Of a DNA stretch of 64,000 nucleotides, positions 17,075-57,810 are shown in pieces. The notes below the pieces were generated by a model. That model saw nothing but the letters and a program-made list of their open reading frames with translations, was not told the DNA's origin and made no database searches. The stretch spans positions 119,757 to 183,756 of the forward strand of contig JBAZSW010000001.1 of NCBI GenBank assembly GCA_041662245.1, given 5' to 3'. Origin of the DNA: Parcubacteria group bacterium. GTDB lineage: Bacteria > Patescibacteriota > Minisyncoccia > Moranbacterales > UBA9337. Positions within the stretch are counted from its first letter, which is position 1. Each line of letters begins with the position of its first letter. The position numbers and the translations under genes were made by a program.

Positions 17075-17193
17075 AGTCTTTGTTGGCTTTGGAATTGTAT
17101 TTTTTTAGTTTTTAAAATTGGGCTTAGTTTTTTACTAAGTCGAACATTAAAAATTATATTCCGCGATAGCTCAGTGGTAGAGCAGTTGGCTGT

Positions 17194-17758
17194 GAACACA
17201 ATCTTTTGTATAATTAATTTATATGAAAGATACAAGAAAATACACTGATCGTTCTGAATATTTAAAACAAGCTGTATCTAAAAGAAGAAAGAAAATAAGA
17301 GATATAGCAATTGAATATAAGGGCGATAAATGTTTTATCTGTGGTTATGACAAATGCAAAAATGCATTAGAATTTCATCATACCGACCCAGTGAAAAAAG
17401 AATTTGGATTATCTAAATCAGGATTAACTCGTAGCTGGGAACGTGTAAAAAATGAAATTGAGAAGTGTGTTTTAGTTTGTGCTAATTGCCATAGAGAATT
17501 ACATGACAAAAACGCAGCCCTCAGTAGAAATACTAAGGTGAAAATAAGGTGAATTGCTGGAAGTCTAAAATCTTTTTTCAGTGTAAAGATTACGATAATC
17601 AGCAGCCGAGCCCCGACGTGACGTCGAGGAAGGTTCAGAGACTATCCCTTCGGGGAGTACTTTCTCTTTAATTAGAGATGGGAAGCGCCTTATCTCATAA
17701 TCTTTTGTAAGAAATGAGAATGATATAGTCCACCCTTTTTGGAAACAAGAAGATAAGT
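17194..17758 (+). mobile_element. Group I self-splicing intron with HNH homing endonuclease ORF (ORF in P1 loop, catalytic core 17553-17758)
   Basis: Canonical group I core elements are present. R element GGTTCAGAGACTA is at 17631-17643. S element GATATAGTCC is at 17721-17730, forming P7 with AGACTA. The 5' exon ends in U and the intron ends with an omega-G. The HNH ORF is embedded upstream of the core. Confidence 0.75.
17223..17552 (+). CDS. HNH homing endonuclease (intron-encoded)
   Basis: Zinc-binding pairs CFICGYDKC and CANCHRELH. HNH motif EFHHTDP...N...H. The ORF lies inside the tRNA intron. Confidence 0.75.
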   Translation: MKDTRKYTDRSEYLKQAVSKRRKKIRDIAIEYKGDKCFICGYDKCKNALEFHHTDPVKKEFGLSKSGLTRSWERVKNEIEKCVLVCANCHRELHDKNAALSRNTKVKIR

Positions 17759-17792
17759 GTAACCAATTGGTCGGGGGTTCGAATCCCTCTCG

Positions 17793-18085
17793 CGGAGCAA
17801 ATTAAGAAAGATACCTGCAAAGGTATCTTTTTTAATTTGCTCCGCGAAGAAAGTGAATGGTTTCACTTTTGTGAGGGTTCGAAAGTCGGAGTGTTGTGTG
17901 AGTTTTTCTGTTTAGGCAGAAAAGGCAAACACCACGAGACGGGGTCGCGAAATTTTTACGTCAGGAAAAATATTTGTGACAGAATCCCTCTCGCGGAGCT
18001 GCGAAAAACTCAAAAAAGACTACCTTATCAGGATAATCTTTTTTTGTTTTGTATTTTTCCTAGGACCGTCCTAGAAATAGGTAGA
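17793..18085 (+). repeat. Direct repeat 1 (~290 bp) of island; begins at tRNA 3' end and contains a second copy of the tRNA 3' end (GAATCCCTCTCGCGGAGC at 17984-18001)
   Basis: Near-identical (~93%) to 22911-23203. It contains a terminator hairpin and an internal 18-nt duplicate of the tRNA T-loop/acceptor 3' strand. The ORF-track ORF 17837-18115 inside it is judged spurious. Confidence 0.8.
17807..17836 (+). terminator. Rho-independent terminator after tRNA 3' exon (inside direct repeat 1)
   Basis: Stem AAAGATACC / GGTATCTTT with loop TGCAAA, followed by a T-run. An identical hairpin lies in direct repeat 2 at 22921-22950. Confidence 0.6.
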
Positions 18086-18782
18086 AGTATGTATCTATTT
18101 ATGCTAAAATCATAACATATGAGCAGAAGAGAAAAAATAATTATAGGAGAGTATTATCATATTTTTAATCGTGGAGTGGAGAAGAGAAAAATATTTAATA
18201 ATAAAAATGATTATTTTCGTTTTTGCAATTCGATGATTTTTTTGAATACGGAAAAACCTTCTAAAATGTCTTTTGACAAATTTGATGATAATGAACGTCC
18301 TTCTGACAATGAGATGTTAGTAGATATTGTTGCGTACTGCTTAAATTCAAATCACTTTCATTGCATTTTAAAAGAGAAACGGGAAAATGGAATTGCGACT
18401 TTTATAAAAAAAGTTTGTACAAGTCATGCTATGTATTTTAATAAAAAATATGAAAGATCAGGAGTATTGTTTCAGGGAAGATTTAAATCGGTACATATAG
18501 ATTCAAATGATTTACTGTTGTATTTATCTGCCTATGTTAATTGCAATAGTCAGGTTCACAAAATAGAGGATGCTGAAAAATATCCTTGGTGTAGTTTTCC
18601 TGAGTATTTAGGCGGGCTTGGAATTGGATGTCAAAAGTCTATCATTCTCGATCAATTTAAAAGTTCAATTGATTATAAAACATTTTGTTTAGAAAAAGTT
18701 GATGGAATGATAAGTAGGAAGGATAATGAAAAATTATGTTTTGAATAGTCATAATTTCTAGGACCGTCCTAGCTAGTTAGTG
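18060..18782 (+). mobile_element. RayT/IS200-like HUH-Y1 transposase gene flanked by identical 15-bp perfect palindromes CTAGGACCGTCCTAG (REP/REPtron-like unit)
   Basis: Palindromes at 18060-18074 and 18768-18782 bracket the ORF at 18119-18748. A third copy lies at 23839-23853 and a degenerate copy in direct repeat 2 near 23176. Confidence 0.6.
18119..18748 (+). CDS. REP-associated tyrosine transposase RayT / IS200-like Y1 HUH transposase (COG1943-like)
   Basis: N-terminal YYHIFNRGVEKRKIFNNKNDYFRF matches the COG1943 pattern (YHV.NRGN.RQ.IF...D..F). HUH motif NHFHCIL. FQGRFKS. Catalytic Tyr region LYLSAYVNCN. Confidence 0.65.
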   Translation: MSRREKIIIGEYYHIFNRGVEKRKIFNNKNDYFRFCNSMIFLNTEKPSKMSFDKFDDNERPSDNEMLVDIVAYCLNSNHFHCILKEKRENGIATFIKKVCTSHAMYFNKKYERSGVLFQGRFKSVHIDSNDLLLYLSAYVNCNSQVHKIEDAEKYPWCSFPEYLGGLGIGCQKSIILDQFKSSIDYKTFCLEKVDGMISRKDNEKLCFE

Positions 18783-22634: not shown

Positions 22635-22651
22635 GTTCCCATTATGGGAAC
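22635..22651. promoter_or_regulatory. Perfect inverted repeat GTTCCCAT-T-ATGGGAAC immediately upstream of higB; candidate HigA operator
   Basis: 8-bp arms of perfect dyad symmetry about 20 bp upstream of the proposed higB start. Confidence 0.4.
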
Positions 22652-22910
22652 ATAATATCATGTGACGAATGAGTTGTCAAGATATGAAAAAATAGGTCTT
22701 TATTGAGCTTTTTTGTTAGCTTTCAAATTTTGTGCATAGTCGCTTCAACTTTCCCGTATTAGGCAAATCCGTTACGTTTTCTTGATTGTTTGATAAGTGG
22801 GCAAATAAGAGTTAATTGGGCTACTCGAGATTAATTAACCTAATCTGTCACTGTGGCAGTTTGTTACTTCTTGTTTCTTGAAACAGGTTCGAACTTCGTC
22901 CAAGATTCGG

Positions 22911-23203
22911 AGCAAATTAAGAAAGATACCTGCAAAGGTATCTTTTTTAATTTTCTCCGCGAAGAAAGTGAATGGTTTCACTTTTGTGAGGGTTCGAAAG
23001 TTGGAGTGTTGTGTGAGTTTTTCTGTTTAAACAGAAAAGGCGAACACCACGAGACGGGGTCGCGAAATTTTTACGTCAGGAAAAATATTTGTGACCAAAT
23101 CTCTCTCGCGGAGCTGCGAAAAACTCAAAAAAGACTACCTTATCAGGATAGTCTTTTTTCGTCTCATTTATTTAAGGACCGTCTTAGTCGATTAGTTTTT
23201 TAA
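22911..23203 (+). repeat. Direct repeat 2 of island (copy of 17793-18085, ~93% identical)
   Basis: Shares the start GGAGCAAATTAAGAAAGATACCTGCAAAGGTATCTTTTTTAATT and the internal CTCGCGGAGCTGCGAAAAACTCAAAAAAGACTACCTTATCAGGATA block. The ORF 22853-23203 predicted inside it is judged spurious. Confidence 0.8.
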
Positions 23204-23403
23204 TTTGTATTAGTTGTGTTATACTATATGTAATGGTTGAAGGGTGCATTGTTGACTAAATTGAATTTTTGTATTATTATATAAAATCAATTATTATCAT
23301 AAAAATATGTTTAAATTTTTGGGTTTAAAAAAGAATAAAAAGGACTTTCAGGCTGTTGCAAGGAAGCAATTAAAAAAGAACAAGGCAGTTCTAAAGTCTT
23401 TGC

Positions 23404-23820
23404 GTGATTATGACGAAGGAAAAAAAGAAATTTCAACAACTAACGTCAGAAAACATTTGCAACATATACAAGCTTCTCTATAAAGAGGGGCTTGTTTCTT
23501 TTCCGGTAGAAGAATGTGTTACCAATAAGATTGAAGCCCTTATTTCAAGTGTAAATAGTGTTTATTTTGGAAAAGATATATATCCATCTCATGGAGAAAA
23601 AGCAGTAGCACATCTTTATTTTATTATAAAAGATCATATATTTGTTGATGGAAACAAGCGGACAGCTTGTCTTTCTTTTTCTGTTTTGTGCGAATTAAAT
23701 GATTTGAATCCGAAATATAAGAATTTTACATTAGATGAGTTAGCTGTTCTTCTGGAGGATTATAAAGGGAAAAATCACCAAGTATTGATTAAGGAAGTTG
23801 CCAAACTTTTATTTAATTAA
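23404..23820 (+). CDS. doc: Doc (death-on-curing) family toxin, Fic fold
   Basis: Doc/Fic motif HIFVDGNKRTA (H.F.DGNKRT). The likely ATG start is at 23410 (the track start is a GTG). Confidence 0.7.
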   Translation: MIMTKEKKKFQQLTSENICNIYKLLYKEGLVSFPVEECVTNKIEALISSVNSVYFGKDIYPSHGEKAVAHLYFIIKDHIFVDGNKRTACLSFSVLCELNDLNPKYKNFTLDELAVLLEDYKGKNHQVLIKEVAKLLFN

Positions 23821-23838: not shown

Positions 23839-23853
23839 CTAGGACCGTCCTAG
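23839..23853. repeat. Third copy of 15-bp palindrome CTAGGACCGTCCTAG (REP-like)
   Basis: Identical to copies at 18060-18074 and 18768-18782. It shares the extended flank AATTTCTAGGACCGTCCTAGCTA with copy 2. Confidence 0.7.
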
Positions 23854-23895
23854 CTATTTATTTTCAGGAAGCCTGTCCAAGATTGAGGATCTTGC
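23853..23895 (+). terminator. Rho-independent terminator after doc
   Basis: Stem AAGCCTG ... CAGGCTT followed by TTTTTTT. Confidence 0.5.
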
Positions 23896-24016
23896 AGGCT
23901 TTTTTTATTAAATATTATTAGCTCTTTACAAGCGTGTTTATAAATGCTAGTTTTTATGCAGTCATTGGGTTAAAAAATTATTTTTAGCGAAAACTCAACT
24001 CTTAAGGGAGAGAAAA

Positions 24017-24400
24017 ATGAAAAGACTATTAGTTGTTGTGACAGTTTTTTTGGTGATTATCTCAGCAGGACAATCTTTCGGCTTGGGATATACATCAGAT
24101 GAAGGAGGTTCGGACTTAAAAAAATCTGAAAATCCAAATTTGGAAAGTGAAAAAAGACAAACACTTCCAAAACAAGCACATCAAGAAAGCGCAAAAAAAA
24201 TGCAACCAGATTCTTCTGGTCGGTATTCGGAAAATGTGAATGGATATGAAGTTCATTCTAATAATCCGATAAATGTTCTACCTCCATCATCTGGTGGAAC
24301 TATCACAGTCCAGGGGAATGAGACGATTGTACGGCCGAATTCTTCCGGTGGCATACAAGCAGTCGGTGGTGGAGATATATTCATCGTTCCAAATAAATAA
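24017..24400 (+). CDS. Small secreted hypothetical protein (signal peptide)
   Basis: N-terminal MKRLLVVVTVFLVIISAGQSFG signal-like segment. Low-complexity mature part. A strong terminator follows. Confidence 0.45.
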   Translation: MKRLLVVVTVFLVIISAGQSFGLGYTSDEGGSDLKKSENPNLESEKRQTLPKQAHQESAKKMQPDSSGRYSENVNGYEVHSNNPINVLPPSSGGTITVQGNETIVRPNSSGGIQAVGGGDIFIVPNK

Positions 24401-35295: not shown

Positions 35296-36000
35296 ATGAC
35301 TAAGAAAAAATTAGAACTCACCACGGTATATGATTTCGTGACTAGCGGAACTACAAGCAGAAGTCATTTGAATTCGGTAGAATGGTTCGCTCTTGTCAAA
35401 GATTCTTTGAATGCTTGTGCAATTATTTTGCCCAAGGTGGCCGAAAATAACAGCGACTCAAGAGGTTTTAAATCTATCCTGAATCATTCGGTCAAAGGTG
35501 GACACAGCAATGAAAAAAGACTTACGCCAAAAGAAGTTGCTGACACTCTACCTAAATCATTGTTTATAAATGATAGGTGGATTTTTATGCCAATAAAGAT
35601 CCTGTCCACCAGTGAGGAAAAAGGTCAATTTTTCGAAAGGCAACTATTCATTTTGGCGGATTGTGCACTTCTGGTTATCGTGGACACGTTTTTTCGCAAA
35701 GAACCTCACCCAGATCAGCGATTAAAGTATGATCCTCCTTTGATTAACGAAAATGTGGTCGGATGTAAAATATCGGCCGCTTCTGAAAAGTTCGGCATAA
35801 CGAATACCGGTTTTGAAGAGACAATTATGCCATATTTCGAAGACCCTGTATTAAAATTGGGAGAGTATATAATTGATCATTTTCTCAACAGTGCCATCAC
35901 TGGGTTAAGAAAGTCCAAAGAAGAAGTGGCCAAGATAGAAGCGGACATGAAACCGTTTTTGGACATTCGGACCCGCTTGGGCATCTGGAATCATCTGTAA
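35296..36000 (+). CDS. Hypothetical protein (234 aa) in a relatively GC-richer block
   Basis: ORF only. Its composition differs from the neighbours. Confidence 0.4.
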   Translation: MTKKKLELTTVYDFVTSGTTSRSHLNSVEWFALVKDSLNACAIILPKVAENNSDSRGFKSILNHSVKGGHSNEKRLTPKEVADTLPKSLFINDRWIFMPIKILSTSEEKGQFFERQLFILADCALLVIVDTFFRKEPHPDQRLKYDPPLINENVVGCKISAASEKFGITNTGFEETIMPYFEDPVLKLGEYIIDHFLNSAITGLRKSKEEVAKIEADMKPFLDIRTRLGIWNHL

Positions 36001-36062
36001 TTCTCTTAAATATGAAATAAATATTGAAATTCTAAATTCAATAGTATTAAGGGAGAACTTTT

Positions 36063-36260
36063 ATGAGCAAAAAATGGGAGGTTCAAAAAATATTCACCCT
36101 TAGATCCGGAGAGCTAGTTAAAACTTTGCCGAAAGGATTAACCGGAAAGGCAGAAGGAAAATACCTAATTATCAAGGTGCCTCGCTACCCGCACAAACTT
36201 AATGGTGTTTATATGGATTGGTGCAGGAGTGTAGGTATTACCAACGGATTTAGTTTGTGA
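36063..36260 (+). CDS. Small hypothetical protein (65 aa)
   Basis: ORF with RBS-like GGGAGAAC upstream. Confidence 0.3.
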   Translation: MSKKWEVQKIFTLRSGELVKTLPKGLTGKAEGKYLIIKVPRYPHKLNGVYMDWCRSVGITNGFSL

Positions 36261-36449
36261 TGTAAGTCCTAAATCATTAATTGCCTCAGGACAGCGAGGC
36301 AATTTTTTTATTTAGTAAAATAACTTTAATAATATTTATCTCTTTTGAATAAAAATAAAATATTCCTTTTTTAATCAATTGATTGACATTTGTGGCAATA
36401 TTTGTTTTGATTATGTAAGGCTCTTTGGATATAAGTTTATTTCAGAGAG

Positions 36450-37217
36450 TTGAGTTATTTTGAAAATATGATTACTTTTTTTTCTTTAAAATTACTCTTA
36501 ACTAAGGGGAATGCTATGAACAAGAATAAAGTAGAAAAAGCTTTTGGAAGAAAAAAAGCATTTTTTCCTGTTATCCATGTTGCAAATGAAGGACAAGCTC
36601 TGCGAAATGTCGCGGTGGCCGTCAAAGCGAAGGCAGATGGAATATTCCTTATCAATCACACCATTAGAGCAATAAAATTGATTGAAATTTTTTTGATTAT
36701 AAAAAAGGAGTTTCCAACTTTATGGATAGGTATCAACTTTCTTGATCTTTATAATTATCAGGCAGCAGAACAGGTCGTCAAAATTGGAGCAGACGGTCTG
36801 TGGACGGATAATGCGGGAGTGTCCGAGGTAGCGATTGAAAGACCTATAATTCGAGATGAATTATTGGGTAAATGGAGTGGGCTTTATTTTGGAGGAGTAG
36901 CTTTTAAATATCAAGAAGAGATTCGAGATGTCGCTACTGTGGCTAAACTATCCTTAGATGTAGTTGACGTTGTTACCACCAGTGGTACACAAACTGGTTT
37001 GGCTCCTCAGATAGATAAAATTTCAACTATAAGAGAGGCTATCGGGGATAATTTTCCTATGGCTATTGCTAGTGGCATAGCAATTGAAAATGTTGAAAGC
37101 TTTCTTCCGTTTTGTGATTGCTTTCTTGTTGCTACGGGAATAAGTTTCAGTCATACCGAGCTTGATGCGGAGAAAACTTGGTTGCTTTCCAATTTAATTC
37201 ATAATTGGAAATTGTAA
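36450..37217 (+). CDS. BtpA/SgcQ-family TIM-barrel protein (PF03437-like)
   Basis: Colinear pattern match to BtpA. FFPVIHVAN matches VIGMVHLLP. ADGIFLINH matches VNGLIVENF. WIGINFL matches PIGINVL. VVTTSGTQTG matches LVVTGFETG. MAIASGIAIENV...CDCFLVATGISF matches ILIGSGVSPDNL...CDGIIAGSYF. The true start is probably the Met of MNKNKVEKAF. Confidence 0.55.
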   Translation: MSYFENMITFFSLKLLLTKGNAMNKNKVEKAFGRKKAFFPVIHVANEGQALRNVAVAVKAKADGIFLINHTIRAIKLIEIFLIIKKEFPTLWIGINFLDLYNYQAAEQVVKIGADGLWTDNAGVSEVAIERPIIRDELLGKWSGLYFGGVAFKYQEEIRDVATVAKLSLDVVDVVTTSGTQTGLAPQIDKISTIREAIGDNFPMAIASGIAIENVESFLPFCDCFLVATGISFSHTELDAEKTWLLSNLIHNWKL

Positions 37218-37251
37218 ACGAGGTCGTCTAATAAGAATGGAGGAGATATAA

Positions 37252-53845: not shown

Positions 53846-54298
53846 ATGGATAGGATAATTCTGTATCCTGACGATAAGAAGAAGGGTTATGTTTGTTGTC
53901 CAAGATGCGGAAAGTGTAAGGGACTTACTCTTTTTAATAACATGCACCTTATAGATATAAAGTGCTGCGGAGAAGTTCTAAAATTTAAAATTGAATGGAG
54001 AAAAAACTGGAGAAAAGAGTATGAAGGATTTGGAACTATAGGAAAAAAAAGAGTACAAATATTTGATCTTTCCCTAGGAGGAATGTCTTTTGATGATAGA
54101 GTATTTGATGCTCGTTTAAATTCTGAGGTGAGAATTTCATTTGAAATAGTTTTAAAGAATGGAAAAACTCAATTATTCAGTCAAACTATAAAAATTTTGT
54201 CTAGAAAAAATAATAAATATAGCGCTAAGTTTCTTGATTTATCAAGAGAATTGAATGTTAGTAAGGTTCTCTACTCTTGGCTTCAAGAAAGAGAATAA
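53846..54298 (+). CDS. PilZ-domain protein with N-terminal Cys4 zinc-ribbon
   Basis: CCPRCGKC...C near the N-terminus. PilZ-like RKNWR (R...R) and DLSLGG (D.S.GG) motifs. Confidence 0.45.
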   Translation: MDRIILYPDDKKKGYVCCPRCGKCKGLTLFNNMHLIDIKCCGEVLKFKIEWRKNWRKEYEGFGTIGKKRVQIFDLSLGGMSFDDRVFDARLNSEVRISFEIVLKNGKTQLFSQTIKILSRKNNKYSAKFLDLSRELNVSKVLYSWLQERE

Positions 54299-54360
54299 AC
54301 TACATTTTTTACAAAAAGATGTTATGCCTAAGTTTTGCATAACATCTTAAATTTTTTATA

Positions 54361-54396
54361 AAAAAACCTCATCTCAAAAGGATGAGTTTTTAATTT
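54361..54396 (+). terminator. Rho-independent terminator after PilZ gene
   Basis: CCTCATC TCAAAAG GATGAGG hairpin followed by TTTTTAATTT. Confidence 0.6.
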
Positions 54397-54518
54397 GTTG
54401 CGAACGTGGGACGGAGTTGGAACTTATTTGTTAAATCTTAGCTTATAAAAAAAATTCACCGAGGGGCTAAAATTAGACACGCCTCGGTGTAGGTGCTGGA
54501 AAATCAAACCAGCTAGAA

Positions 54519-54833
54519 TTATTCTTCGATAACCGCAGGGGCCAGCTCACTGAGAAGGTATGACGCATAGCTTAGGAAGTCTCGGAATCCAACTAGGTGC
54601 CTGGTTATGTGTCCTAGAGATTGTCTGCACATGGACCATTTCATAAGCATCTTGATTTGTGCATTATGGGTTCCAACAAGACTTCGCATACCGACAACTT
54701 CATCATGTTCCTCTTCTTGTGGTCTCTGCGTTGCCTCATGCACGCGTCTGCTGGCCTCCTTTTCCAAGGTCTCAATCAAATTTGCAATAACTGATCGAGA
54801 ATAGCCATTGACCACGGGATCTAAATTTTTCAT
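54519..54833 (-). CDS. Orphan 104-aa protein encoded in a GC-rich (~48-50% GC) insert; unknown function
   Basis: ORF with a strong RBS (GGAGAAGG 6 nt before the ATG on the minus strand). A downstream hairpin terminator (CACCGAGG ... CCTCGGTG at 54457-54490 followed by a T-run on the minus strand). Base composition is very different from the flanks. Confidence 0.45.
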   Translation of the reverse strand: MKNLDPVVNGYSRSVIANLIETLEKEASRRVHEATQRPQEEEHDEVVGMRSLVGTHNAQIKMLMKWSMCRQSLGHITRHLVGFRDFLSYASYLLSELAPAVIEE

Positions 54834-55404
54834 TTTGCCTTCTCCTTCTGGTGAGTTTGCATTCTATGACATATTTCAATAGCGAATTTATGCCGACAAT
54901 GTTCAACTAGGAACTCACAAACATATATTAAAATTAGACTTTTGTCAATAGCGCGTTCAAATAATCAAAGGTTCTAAAGTGATAACTGGGTATAAAAATA
55001 ACCTCTTGGATAAAAGGTTATTTTGTCTGTTGAAGATGAGGGATTCCTCTTCATCCGTCGCTTCGCACGTGACTGGTGCCACAGGCTTCGCTCCTCCCTC
55101 AGAGCCTGGGTTTTTAAAAACGCAAAGCCCTGCCTGCCGGTAGGCAAGAGTTTGCCTTTTTAAAATACCCTTCGAATCCTTCATCAATAAAAAATAAAAC
55201 CCCACCCGAAGAGGGTGAGGTTTAATTTTTCAGTTGGGGATGAATGGATTTCCGCATCACTCATTCGCCGTCACTCATTCATTCTTTGCCCTGGGTAGCG
55301 CCAAACGCTCTTTTTCGCGTTTGTCGACGTTCATTTCAATAATTTTTTGCTAAAAATTATTTTATTCACTTGCTACCCGTTCGAATCCCTGCCTCAGCTA
55401 AATA

Positions 55405-55447
55405 AAATCAAAAAACACACCCTAGCCGGGCGTGTCTTTTGATTTTA
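55405..55447 (-). terminator. Rho-independent terminator downstream of tRNA-Gln (minus strand)
   Basis: The minus strand reads GACACGCCCGGCTAGGGTGTG hairpin followed by TTTTTTGATTTT. Confidence 0.5.
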
Positions 55448-55451
55448 TAAG

Positions 55452-55522
55452 TTGGAGATGAGGGATTCGAACCCCCGATGACGGGATCAGAACCCGTTGC
55501 CTTACCGCTTGGCTAATCTCCA
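55452..55522 (-). tRNA. tRNA-Gln (anticodon CUG)
   Basis: Minus-strand cloverleaf UGGAGAU UA GCC AAGCGGUAA GGC A ACGGG UUCUGAU CCCGU CAUC GGGGG UUCGAAU CCCUC AUCUCCA A. It has a U1-A72 pair and a 3-bp D stem, as in E. coli tRNA-Gln. CCA is not encoded. Confidence 0.8.
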
Positions 55523-55629
55523 ATTGTAAATATTTAACTTAACAAGACTTATTCTAGCACACTTTTTTAATTATTTTCAATACCTATGTAGTATCTAAAT
55601 ATTATCTCAAAGTTATTATTTAATAAGTC

Positions 55630-56052
55630 TTGACAGCTTTTTATTAATTATGATAGTCTTTCAATGTTTAGAAGAGCGTTTCTTCGGATCGTACGTATCT
55701 GGAGGAAGGTAAACAAAAACAATTTTTTACGGAGGATATCATGAAAAGGTATCTAGTACCGCGCTGTGCACGGTGTATGAACGGTTACTGACGATGGGGC
55801 GCTAATATGCCCCGAATTATTTGGTTAGGGTATTTCCCATTTGAATGCCCACAAATTGGGAACGCAGAAAAAACAAAAAATGGGTACTACATTAGAGGGA
55901 GGTGAAAAAATTGTTCCAAATTAAAACTGGTCTGGGTGTTCCCTTCTGCGTATCACGCAGAGCAGGGGAGTCCCGCGGCTAAGACAGATATAACTGTCCG
56001 TGCTAGGAAGAAGAGGTCACTTTGGTATCCCGAAGTGACCTTGATTATTTTT
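55630..56052 (+). ncRNA. Candidate noncoding transcription unit (~420 nt, promoter-like TTGACA to strong terminator) with only a 16-aa ORF (MKRYLVPRCARCMNGY, 55741-55791, RBS GGAGG); identity unknown
   Basis: TTGACA at 55630-55635. Elevated GC. Several internal hairpins (for example TCTGCGT ATC ACGCAGA). Terminator AGGTCACTT ... AAGTGACCT plus T-run at 56014-56052. No ORF of at least 60 aa. No RNase P, tmRNA, SRP, T-box or B12 consensus motifs were found by eye. Confidence 0.3.
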
Positions 56053-56106
56053 ATAAAAGATGAATTTAATGTAAAATAGAAGCAATAATAAAATCATAAA
56101 AATAGA

Positions 56107-56604
56107 ATGAAAAATATCATAAGTGTTATTGGTGACTATAAAATTTTTTTGAATGCCGTATACGCAAATTTAAAAAGTGCAAAAGTTGATGTAGCTGATT
56201 TTTATATTGATCATATCGCTTATCGAACTACTTCTCAAAAAAACTACAGAGTGATTAGGGAAGAATTATTAAATTGGGGAGAAATCATGACAGAAAAAAT
56301 AATTCGTAATCGATTAGTGTCAATCTTTAAATTTAATATTCCATTAGATTATAATGATTCGAAAATAGAATATTTTGAGATATTGGAACCTGCCAATGAC
56401 AATAATTACAAAGAAGGATTAGAGCACGCAGAATTTGTAGTGGGCAAAAAATTTTCAGAACTAGTTTCTAAAAATTCTCAAATTAATTTTATTTTCAAAG
56501 ATAAAGAAATAAATCCAGAATTAGTTTTAAAATTTCCCGATAACGTCAATGTAAAATTTCATGAGTTGCCGATAGATGAAGTGATTAAATTGGAAGAAAA
56601 ATAG
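56107..56604 (+). CDS. Hypothetical protein (165 aa), possibly VOC/glyoxalase-fold (YecM-like)
   Basis: Paired beta-alpha-beta-beta-beta-like modules with DHIAYRT and LEHAEFVVG segments. Weak. Confidence 0.3.
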   Translation: MKNIISVIGDYKIFLNAVYANLKSAKVDVADFYIDHIAYRTTSQKNYRVIREELLNWGEIMTEKIIRNRLVSIFKFNIPLDYNDSKIEYFEILEPANDNNYKEGLEHAEFVVGKKFSELVSKNSQINFIFKDKEINPELVLKFPDNVNVKFHELPIDEVIKLEEK

Positions 56605-56691
56605 GCCAGTAATATTTCTAATAGTTCTAGACTTAGTGGTTAGGGAATGGTAAAATGAAGTTTGTAAGACATTAAATAGGGTAACTAATTT

Positions 56692-57810
56692 ATGAAAATC
56701 GCAATTCAGGCAGCGGATTTAGATAATAAGAGAATTGATGGAACAAGAGTGTATCTTTTAAATGTACTCAAATATCTAGGCAAACTTTCTCCAAAAGATG
56801 AGTTTATAATTTATCATAAAAATAATTTTAATTCAGAGCTAATTCCAGCTATTTTTCCTAATTATAATATAAAAAAATTAAAATTTTTTAAACTTTGGAC
56901 GCAAACTAGATTTGCTTTTAATATTTGGAAAGATAAAGTGGATATCTTGTGGATGCCGATGCATAATATTCCACTTTTAAAAAATAAAAATTTAAAAACA
57001 ATAGTTACTATTCACGATTTAGCTTTTAAACAATTTCCTAAAACCTTTCCCAAAAAGGATTTGTTTAAGCTTAATCTTTTGACTGATTTGGCGATAAAAA
57101 AATCCGATAAGCTTATTGCCGTTTCTTATTCCACTAAAAGAGATATTTTGAAATTTTATCCTGAGATAAAGAAAGATAAAATTAAGGTTATTTATCATGG
57201 TTTTGACGCGGAGCTTTATCAAAGGGAATTTTATCAAGAGATTATAGATAAGACTTTGGAAAGTTATAAGTTAAGAGCCAAAAAATATATCTTATATGTT
57301 GGCGCTATTCAACCTCGAAAAAATTTAAAGACATTAGTTGAGGCTTTTGAGATTTTTAAAAAAGAAAATAAAAATAATATTAAACTAGTTTTAGCGGGAG
57401 GCAGGGCTTGGAGTTGGCAAGAATCAATGGATTCAATTGAAAAAAGTCCCGAGAGAGATAATATTATTCTAACAGGCAGGATTCCTTTTGACGATTTATC
57501 GATTTTGCAACAAAATGCAACTATTTTTATTTTTCCTAGCCTTTATGAAGGATTCGGAATTCCAGTTTTAGAGGCTTTTGCTGCGGGAACTCCAGTCATT
57601 TTAGCGAGAAATTCTAGTTTAGAAGAAGTTGGGGGAGAGGCGGCTAAATATTTTGATAGTTTAGATAGTAAAGAATTAGCTCAAAAAATTAACGAAGTAG
57701 TAAATAGTTCAGAATTGCAAAAAGAAATGATAGCAAAGGGCAAACAACAACTAAAAAAATTCTCTTGGGAAAAATGCGCCAAAGAAACTTTGGAATTTAT
57801 TAAGTCATAA
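56692..57810 (+). CDS. Glycosyltransferase family 4 (GT-B, RfaG-like)
   Basis: C-terminal donor-binding region FPSLYEGFGIPVLEAFAAGTPVI with E...E motif. Confidence 0.8.
   Translation: MKIAIQAADLDNKRIDGTRVYLLNVLKYLGKLSPKDEFIIYHKNNFNSELIPAIFPNYNIKKLKFFKLWTQTRFAFNIWKDKVDILWMPMHNIPLLKNKNLKTIVTIHDLAFKQFPKTFPKKDLFKLNLLTDLAIKKSDKLIAVSYSTKRDILKFYPEIKKDKIKVIYHGFDAELYQREFYQEIIDKTLESYKLRAKKYILYVGAIQPRKNLKTLVEAFEIFKKENKNNIKLVLAGGRAWSWQESMDSIEKSPERDNIILTGRIPFDDLSILQQNATIFIFPSLYEGFGIPVLEAFAAGTPVILARNSSLEEVGGEAAKYFDSLDSKELAQKINEVVNSSELQKEMIAKGKQQLKKFSWEKCAKETLEFIKS

Follow-up and report, generated by a model that had tools for sequence, protein, structure and literature searches.

Island-encoded small RNAs beside tRNA genes are of a well-known kind, and examples encoded on islands or prophages near such genes include Isr of Salmonella and DicF and IpeX of E. 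coli. In general, they are stand-alone noncoding units of a few hundred nucleotides that end in a strong intrinsic terminator, reside in acquired DNA adjacent to tRNA genes, and are lineage-specific. The unit described here, a predicted transcript of ~390 nt within a ~420-nt ORF-poor stretch of a Parcubacteria (CPR/Patescibacteria) MAG, appears to share this general plan, although it resembles none of them in sequence or structure.

The unit spans positions 55630-56052 of the 64-kb stretch of DNA that was analyzed (the window). It is tentatively read as an orphan, lineage-specific noncoding transcription unit, i.e., an island-borne small RNA, at a tRNA-Gln integration hotspot. Judged by its sequence signals, it carries what an independent small-RNA gene would have, namely noncoding DNA between a promoter-like site and a Rho-independent terminator of its own. 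To our knowledge, RNA-based regulation in CPR/Patescibacteria is almost unexplored, and most CPR bacteria are generally considered to lack Hfq. If transcribed and functional, the unit would join a very small number of candidate regulatory RNAs known from these organisms, and it would indicate that mobile DNA imports such RNAs into their minimal genomes.

Features of the unit

The GC content of the window is 33% and the window is densely coded. The sole long ORF-poor stretch near the unit extends from 54300 to 56106 and also holds tRNA-Gln(CUG). Despite the dense coding, ~420 nt of noncoding DNA persist in the unit at a GC content of 0.42-0.45 (~0.43) compared to 0.33 in the window, and the flanking spacers look very AT-rich. 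The 165-aa gene 3' of the unit encodes a YecM-family protein (56107-56604), the ATG of which lies 55 nt past the unit end. A first-pass annotation of this DNA had listed the TTGACA at 55630, the strong terminator, the raised GC, and several hairpins as the marks of a noncoding unit, and all of these are present (Table 1).

Table 1. Coordinates of the features in and beside the unit (positions in the window)
Feature	Position	Strand	Details
tRNA-Gln(CUG)	55451-55522	-	Rfam, ARAGORN; divergent from the unit, inverted relative to all related loci
tRNA-Gln promoter-like site	55580-55551	-	TTGAAA, 18 nt, TG-extended TAGAAT
Promoter-like site	55630-55657	+	TTGACA (55630-55635), 16 nt, GATAGT (55652-55657); consensus scan 10/12
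5' hairpin domain	55665-55721	+	inner stem 55676-55710; 3' arm GGAGGAAGG (55701-55709)
16-codon ORF MKRYLVPRCARCMNGY with GGAGG	55731-55791	+	GGAGG 55731-55735, ATG 55741, TGA 55789-55791
Internal terminator-like hairpin UGGGGCGCUAAUAUGCCCCG with weak U tail AAUUAUUUGG	55795-55824	+	terminator scan, fold
A-rich central segment without excess structure	55825-55927	+	includes GGGAGGUG (55897-55904)
TTG-started 23-aa ORF MFQIKTGLGVPFCVSRRAGESRG	55911-55982	+	GGAGG 8 nt upstream; frame translation
3' domain	55928-55999	+	irregular hairpin 55928-55981 and 5-bp hairpin 55983-55999
Intrinsic terminator	56013-56052	+	13-bp stem 56013-56042, 4-nt loop, tail GATTATTTTT / GAUUAUUUUU

The -10 hexamer of the promoter-like site is weak, and other -10 registers are found at TATGAT (55649-55654, with a 13-nt spacer) and TG-n-TAGTCT (18-nt spacer). 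This AT-rich DNA is rich in promoter-like matches, with 19 observed per 2.6 kb compared to 8.5 expected from shuffles. As the -10 is poor and such matches occur about twice as often as in shuffles, the promoter call is weak evidence. Transcription of the unit would probably start near 55661-55666. The lone opposite-strand promoter-like site inside the unit is weak (9/12, 55845-55816), and a further promoter-like site (TTTATA, 16 nt, TAAAAT) is located at 56050-56077 between the terminator and yecM. A promoter motif TAT(A/G)ATAGTCTTT, which is common to the unit and the region upstream of tRNA-Asn, did not constitute a significant match.

The terminator of the unit is the top-scoring terminator-like site within 54200-56800. 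Its fold of -20 kcal/mol corresponds to a z of -5.1, and none of 200 shuffles was as stable. Upstream of it, the internal hairpin at 55795-55814 could end a shorter isoform of ~160 nt. Neither internal direct repeats in the unit nor paralogues of the unit inside the window were found.

Coding potential

ORFs of at least 60 aa are absent from the unit, as had been noted in the first-pass annotation, and the longest ORFs are 47 and 32 aa. The 16-aa ORF reported there, with GGAGG 5 nt 5' of the ATG at 55741, was also confirmed. In the predicted fold, a 7-bp hairpin (55734-55754) holds this AUG in its loop and also sequesters part of the Shine-Dalgarno (SD) motif. GC at codon positions 1/2/3 is flat in the frame of the ATG (0.41/0.44/0.42) compared to ~0.42/0.31/0.25 in native genes.

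While the frame of this ATG has just two internal stops across 113 codons, both of them TGA, a frame with three stops or fewer arises in 72% of shuffles, so that a near-open frame is expected by chance. Selenocysteine, other recoding, and a pseudogene were rejected as explanations of the two-TGA frame, as there is no periodicity, the stop count is that of chance, and TGA is a normal stop, ending six genes in the window. A phmmer search of the frame-0 translation against 1.84 billion representatives returned one marginal match, which is considered spurious because it is a tandem-repeat ORF overlapping a C2H2 zinc-finger gene on an apparently eukaryotic contig. No protein homologue was found at E<=10 when the concatenated six-frame query was searched against 5.8 billion protein clusters, and the same protein searches gave no homologue of the 16-aa or the 23-aa peptide.

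These data bear on two alternative readings. The first is that the unit is nonfunctional, decaying island cargo, in which a leftover SD and ATG 5' end, gene fragments, and a terminator persist in DNA riddled with stops. The one frame of 113 codons that is interrupted by no more than two stops is consistent with such a remnant, while the absence of protein homologues in any frame, of leftover codon periodicity, and of any surplus of openness over chance argues against it. Further evidence on this reading is given with the genomic context below.

The second is a small-protein locus, suggested in the first-pass annotation as a small-peptide or toxin locus. Here, the 16-aa CxxC peptide (55741-55791) and/or the 23-aa TTG-started peptide would be translated, and the hairpins would act as mRNA stabilizers and terminator. 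GGAGG precedes the two small ORFs by 5-8 nt and occurs in three copies per 200 nt in the unit compared to ~1 per kb on the same strand, and a minority of the genes in the window do carry SD motifs. However, the SD motif is missing in ~46 of the 51 window ORFs of at least 100 aa, and the anti-SD motif is absent from about half of Parcubacteria (PMC9297842). Since native genes rarely have an SD, the GGAGG ahead of the 16-aa ORF is weak evidence of translation. SD-led starts are present in genes that look foreign, i.e., the 104-aa ORF of this locus and, by reading, the ORFs of the island in the related locus L013. The peptides also differ from a type I toxin, for which both are too short and insufficiently hydrophobic: they are charged and have no hydrophobic stretch of transmembrane length. 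Together with the lack of homologues, the sequestered first AUG, and the absence of maturation or partner genes nearby, this makes a small-protein locus unlikely.

Comparison with known RNA families

Rfam 15 was searched with the whole window at gathering thresholds, with 2.1 kb at E<=10, and with the 441-nt unit at E<=10, the last covering 4227 families. No known RNA was assigned to the unit by these Infernal scans. At gathering thresholds, tRNA was the sole match in the whole window, and the permissive scan of the unit gave two noise matches, CRISPR-DR58 (14 bits) and msiK (12 bits). RNase P, 6S, SRP, tmRNA, T-box, riboswitch, and intron families were all without a match in the 441-nt unit at E<=10. 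The permissive mode was sensitive enough to recover the group I intron in the window that default Rfam filters had missed. Weak matches to isrJ and other families fall in the neighboring region, outside the unit, and are regarded as noise.

A divergent RNase P, 6S, or SRP RNA had been left open in the first-pass annotation. In its broader form, this reading takes the unit for a highly divergent housekeeping RNA, tmRNA included, that escapes existing models. The unit is similar to the genes of these RNAs in its size range, its GC enrichment, and its own promoter and terminator; at ~390 nt, it resembles above all RNase P RNA and tmRNA genes in AT-rich genomes, and the group I intron missed by the default filters illustrates how a real RNA can go undetected. 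It differs from them in that no covariance model of those clans matched at E<=10 with permissive filters. Bacterial RNase P RNA was rejected, as neither RF00010 nor RF00011 matched and the P4 strands (GGAAAGUCC... / ...ACAGAA..CGGCUUA) are not visible by eye. For tmRNA, no match of the RF00023 clan was obtained in the unit, and ARAGORN reported the tRNA-Gln only in the window and no tmRNA with its tRNA-like end. For 6S RNA (RF00013) and SRP RNA (RF00169/RF01854), there was no match at E<=10, and the SRP domain IV motif is not visible by eye. A housekeeping RNA would moreover be expected to be conserved, yet no similar sequence occurs in the scanned related loci, and the unit lies within apparently inserted DNA. 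This reading is therefore considered highly improbable.

Another possibility raised earlier was a cis-regulatory leader of the 165-aa gene, i.e., a 5' leader of the riboswitch or attenuator type that governs read-through into the yecM-GT4 genes. The unit is on the same strand as yecM and ends 55 nt ahead of its start codon. Leaders of this type commonly use a terminator as their expression platform, and, as in attenuators, a short SD-led, leader-peptide-like ORF is followed by a U-tailed hairpin, here 3 nt on. Unlike leader-peptide attenuators, however, the unit has no regulatory codon run and extends over a further 230 nt up to another terminator that is stronger than the first. It also differs from riboswitch and T-box leaders, as no antiterminator that could pair with the terminator's 5' arm is visible by eye and matches to riboswitch, T-box, or leader families were absent at E<=10. 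The YecM homologues (up to 60% identity) at ten other loci have upstream regions of 13-260 nt that are unrelated to the unit, and in the closest of these loci (L023 and L024), tRNA-Gln(CUG) ends 31 nt 5' of yecM. Finally, the promoter-like site at 56050-56077 lies between the terminator and yecM. A leader function is thus very unlikely.

The remaining candidates were also rejected. The string UAGUACCGCG of the unit lacks the UGGN by which a T-box pairs with the tRNA 3' end, and no Rfam score for a T-box was obtained. The tRNA group I intron of this genome (17194-17759) is likewise GC-rich and ORF-poor; unlike it, the unit is not within a tRNA gene and has no RF00028 (Intron_gpI) score. CRISPR/tracrRNA, considered on account of the CRISPR-DR58 match, was dismissed in view of the absence of arrays and of Cas domains in the two largest and six other ORFs. 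A TIGR array (PMC12045711) was dismissed, as the unit is without internal direct repeats.

Predicted structure

Compared with dinucleotide shuffles, the whole unit has a folding z of -4.1 for the + strand and -3.15 for the - strand. The + strand fold exceeds that of the - strand in stability by 24 kcal/mol. Without the terminator, z amounts to -3.0 (100 shuffles) or -2.2 by a 30-shuffle estimate. The background of the window, taken from 142 pieces of 347 nt, has a mean z of -0.66 and a standard deviation of 1.5, and the most extreme pieces are the group I intron and its tRNA with a z of about -6.5. Depending on whether the estimate of -2.2 or -3.0 is used, the unit is ~1.0-1.6 standard deviations off this background. 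It is in the structured tail of the window and is not extreme.

Besides the terminator, two domains account for the excess of folding. The 5' hairpin domain has a free energy of -16.3 kcal/mol and a z of -3.0 (3 of 200 shuffles as stable), and the 3' domain reaches -35.1 kcal/mol and a z of -2.9 (1 of 200 shuffles as stable); in both, the MFE structure equals the centroid. The irregular hairpin of the 3' domain includes an inverted repeat with a perfect 7-bp apical stem (55945-55961). The central parts fold like shuffles, with z values of -0.2 for 55723-55825 and -0.3 for 55820-55925. The predicted fold is a row of local hairpins and not a single closed rod of the kind that 6S RNA forms, a long hairpin with a central bubble. 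As the excess is local to the 5' hairpin, the 3' hairpin, and the terminator, the unit does not have a compact, RNase P-like global structure. The suggestion of an unrecognized structured RNA in the first-pass annotation therefore holds in part: the unit is noncoding, bounded by signals, and folded above shuffles, while its structure is patchy and its middle 200 nt are indistinguishable from shuffles.

A duplex scan for an antisense target, which covered 51 translation-initiation regions, tRNA-Gln, and the neighboring element X, gave a best z of -3.05 in 53 tests, which is not significant.

Conservation and genomic context

Conservation was tested on locus segments of relatives (5-10 kb for L012, L013, and L018). 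L001 is from the same organism and 100% identical, and the contig of this organism also occurs in SRR18595301. A metagenome scan with the D-arm-to-anticodon-arm sequence of tRNA-Gln yielded 12 loci (L009-L020), including L013 (Ga0209417_1000196), L012 (Ga0066602_10003725), and L018 (Ga0315539_1014110). No sequence similar to the unit was found with nhmmer --max in these 12 loci or in the yecM-syntenic loci L002-L008 and L023-L026. In L021, for which the query was 54300-56110 only, the sole match was the region of the 104-aa ORF. DNA homologues in phages and plasmids were likewise not found with blastn in "distant" mode, nor were segments of the unit found in viral contigs by four exact-pattern scans. 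Conservation, the lack of which the first-pass annotation had regarded as speaking against its reading, was thus not observed among the scanned relatives, phages, plasmids, and viral contigs, and the unit appears not to be conserved as far as the data allow. As no homologue was found, neither covariation nor any sign of selection supports the unit. Element X illustrates the degree of conservation that an RNA can have in these loci, with 90-92.5% identity compared to 74-80% for genes.

The relatives allow the order of the flanking genes to be compared. The three genes that precede the PilZ gene have orthologues in L013 with 74-85% amino acid and 76-80% nucleotide identity, and L012, L018, and L009 carry a GT4 orthologue at 62-70%. 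The gene order is Metallophos, PilZ, tRNA-Gln in L013 and tRNA-Gln ... GT4 in L009, L018, and L012. In all four, tRNA-Gln is co-directional with the PilZ/GT4 genes, whereas it is inverted in the window. The DNA 3' of tRNA-Gln is different in every relative (including L012, L013, L009, L018, and L023). These orders point to PilZ, tRNA-Gln, yecM, GT4 as the probable ancestral arrangement.

In the window, ~1.1 kb of GC-rich DNA separates tRNA-Gln from PilZ, and the unit lies between tRNA-Gln and yecM. This ~1.1-kb segment holds the conserved element X, a second fragment, and an adjoining orphan SD-led ORF of 104 aa with a GC content of 0.45. At the end of the second fragment, the 3' end of tRNA-Gln is repeated directly at 55029-55045 (16 of 17 nt). 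Since tRNA-Gln ends 31 nt 5' of yecM in L023 and L024, the DNA between them in the window is apparently inserted and inverted island DNA. No integrase was detected among the ORFs scanned beside tRNA-Gln here and in L012 and L013, and no repeat of the tRNA end was found at the yecM-proximal edge. The locus is most readily interpreted as an integration hotspot at a tRNA gene, where the cargo has degraded and an inversion occurred later, in which case the unit would be part of the insert.

This context also bears on the decaying-cargo reading. The unit lies in DNA that varies among related loci and is missing from them, its raised GC is the same as that of the adjacent island remnant at 54400-55230 (0.43-0.45 compared to 0.33), and SD-led starts such as those in the unit characterize island genes and not native ones. 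The middle 200 nt are structurally unremarkable, and no integrase was found among the ORFs scanned, from which it follows that the island would already be degraded. On the other side, some maintenance is suggested by the intact strong terminator and the two stable hairpins. Coding in the window is also dense, and small CPR genomes are generally considered to shed useless DNA fast. With the coding evidence given above, decaying cargo, although doubtful in itself, is nearly as likely as a small RNA.

The small-RNA reading, which is preferred tentatively, has several observations against it: the unit has no homologue, its middle 200 nt have no excess structure, the overall z is modest, the -10 is poor, and no antisense target was found. 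Under this reading, the sigma-70-type promoter at 55630-55657, divergent from that of tRNA-Gln, would drive a transcript of ~390 nt from ~55662 that would stop at the terminator or, for the shorter product, possibly at the internal hairpin. In the RNA, a stable 5' hairpin and a stable 3' hairpin domain would flank a loosely structured, purine- and A-rich middle that holds three GGAGG motifs. It would act as an island-type regulatory RNA, by base pairing or by titration of a protein or of ribosomes, rather than as a ribozyme or a housekeeping RNA. A bolder version takes the unit for the first known representative of a new class of medium-sized (~390 nt) regulatory RNAs on Parcubacteria mobile DNA. 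Through its three exposed GGAGG motifs, such an RNA might, for example, titrate either an RNA-binding protein or ribosomes in a host where SD initiation is rare, and the apparent orphan status would reflect sparse sampling of the lineage; this is unlikely.

As a single-genome orphan without evidence of selection, the unit carries little weight alone. In practice, ORF-free stretches of high GC content are worth scanning in AT-rich CPR genomes, and comparative context, here the probable ancestral adjacency of tRNA-Gln and yecM, can quickly separate inserted DNA from a missed housekeeping RNA.

A group I intron and a candidate structured RNA in the window

The 566-nt group I intron, which carries an HNH endonuclease ORF, interrupts the tRNA-Asn(GUU) gene of the window at anticodon position 35/36. 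The intron segment at 17461-17752 scored 77.7 bits with RF00028. The same arrangement of tRNA and group I intron was recently described for Patescibacteria, where most tRNA introns are without a homing endonuclease (PMC13011429).

Element X, a 174-nt segment on the - strand (55232-55405) downstream of tRNA-Gln, matched no Rfam family. Its identity in L012, L013, and L014 amounts to 90-92.5%, compared to 74-80% for the neighboring genes, and its predicted fold is a closed multibranch structure that includes two compensatory pairs. Of the two, element X rather than the unit is the stronger candidate for a new structured RNA.

Element X and the tRNA-Gln block

Element X, which lies directly downstream of tRNA-Gln, was found at 90-92.5% identity in three other metagenomic genomes (loci L012, L013, and L014), where the adjacent genes reached only 74-80%. 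The predicted fold is multibranched and closed, with two compensatory pairs. The 3' end of the element is a copy of the tRNA-Gln 3' end, and no match was obtained among Rfam families. Element X is either a candidate for a novel, conserved structured RNA or a conserved arm belonging to an integrative element.

Among the ORFs scanned beside tRNA-Gln, no integrase was identified in the degraded island. The sole homologue of the orphan ORF in this island (56%) was located on a 1.8-kb Logan contig (L021).

When 53846-56700 is compared with L013, L012, L009, L018, and L023, the tRNA-Gln block is oriented opposite to all related loci. In the closest yecM-bearing contigs (L023 and L024), tRNA-Gln lies upstream of yecM and ends 31 nt from it. 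We infer the ancestral order PilZ, tRNA-Gln, yecM, GT4.

Split tRNA-Asn

The tRNA-Asn intron scored 77.7 bits against RF00028 in an Rfam scan restricted to that region, while the split gene and its intron were detected neither by the default whole-window Rfam scan nor by ARAGORN. Introns between positions 35 and 36 of tRNA-Asn/Asp are known from Patescibacteria, the majority of them without a homing endonuclease (PMC13011429). The intron described here corresponds to this set and carries an HNH ORF. The partial tRNA-like copy repeats the 3' strands of the tRNA-Asn acceptor and T arm on either side of an unrelated insert of about 140 nt (GCTCCGCGA...GAATCCCTCTCGCGGAGC). This copy may represent a pseudogene or a recombination footprint.

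Features of the tRNA-Gln and tRNA-Asn regions and further stable folds
Feature	Position	Strand	Remark
tRNA-Asn(GUU), intron-split	17160-17797	+	break between anticodon positions 35 and 36
5' exon	17160-17193	+	
group I intron	about 17194-17759	+	566 nt; Rfam RF00028
HNH endonuclease ORF	17223-17552		109 aa; inside intron; Pfam PF01844
3' exon	17760-17797	+	
second tRNA-like copy, partial	17841-18000	+	3' of tRNA-Asn terminator
IS200-like Y1 transposase ORF	18119-18748		PF01797; adjoins partial copy
unusually stable 347-nt piece	about 22951-23300		z = -4.2
unusually stable 347-nt piece	about 23851-24200		z = -3.0
unusually stable 347-nt piece	about 36901-37250		z = -3.8
degraded island	54400-55230		downstream of tRNA-Gln
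orphan ORF	54519-54833	-	104 aa; GC 0.45; strong SD
direct repeat of tRNA-Gln 3' end	55029-55045		16/17 nt; AATCCCTCATCTTCAAC
palindrome in island	55112-55165		
terminator hairpin in island	55197-55223		
element X	55232-55405	-	about 174 nt; past bidirectional hairpin
bidirectional terminator hairpin	55402-55448		between tRNA-Gln and element X
element X copies	L012 4523-4695; L013 1584-1756; L014		relatives

Shine-Dalgarno usage and other stable folds

Across the whole window, about 46 of the 51 ORFs of at least 100 aa have an A/T-rich upstream region and no Shine-Dalgarno motif. The exceptions start at 24017, 35296, 37252, and 53846, together with the foreign-looking orphan ORF. This scarcity is consistent with the absence of the anti-SD motif reported for many Parcubacteria (PMC9297842). 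The three unusually stable pieces lie close to the intergenic gaps 22642-22853, 23203-23404, and 36000-36450.
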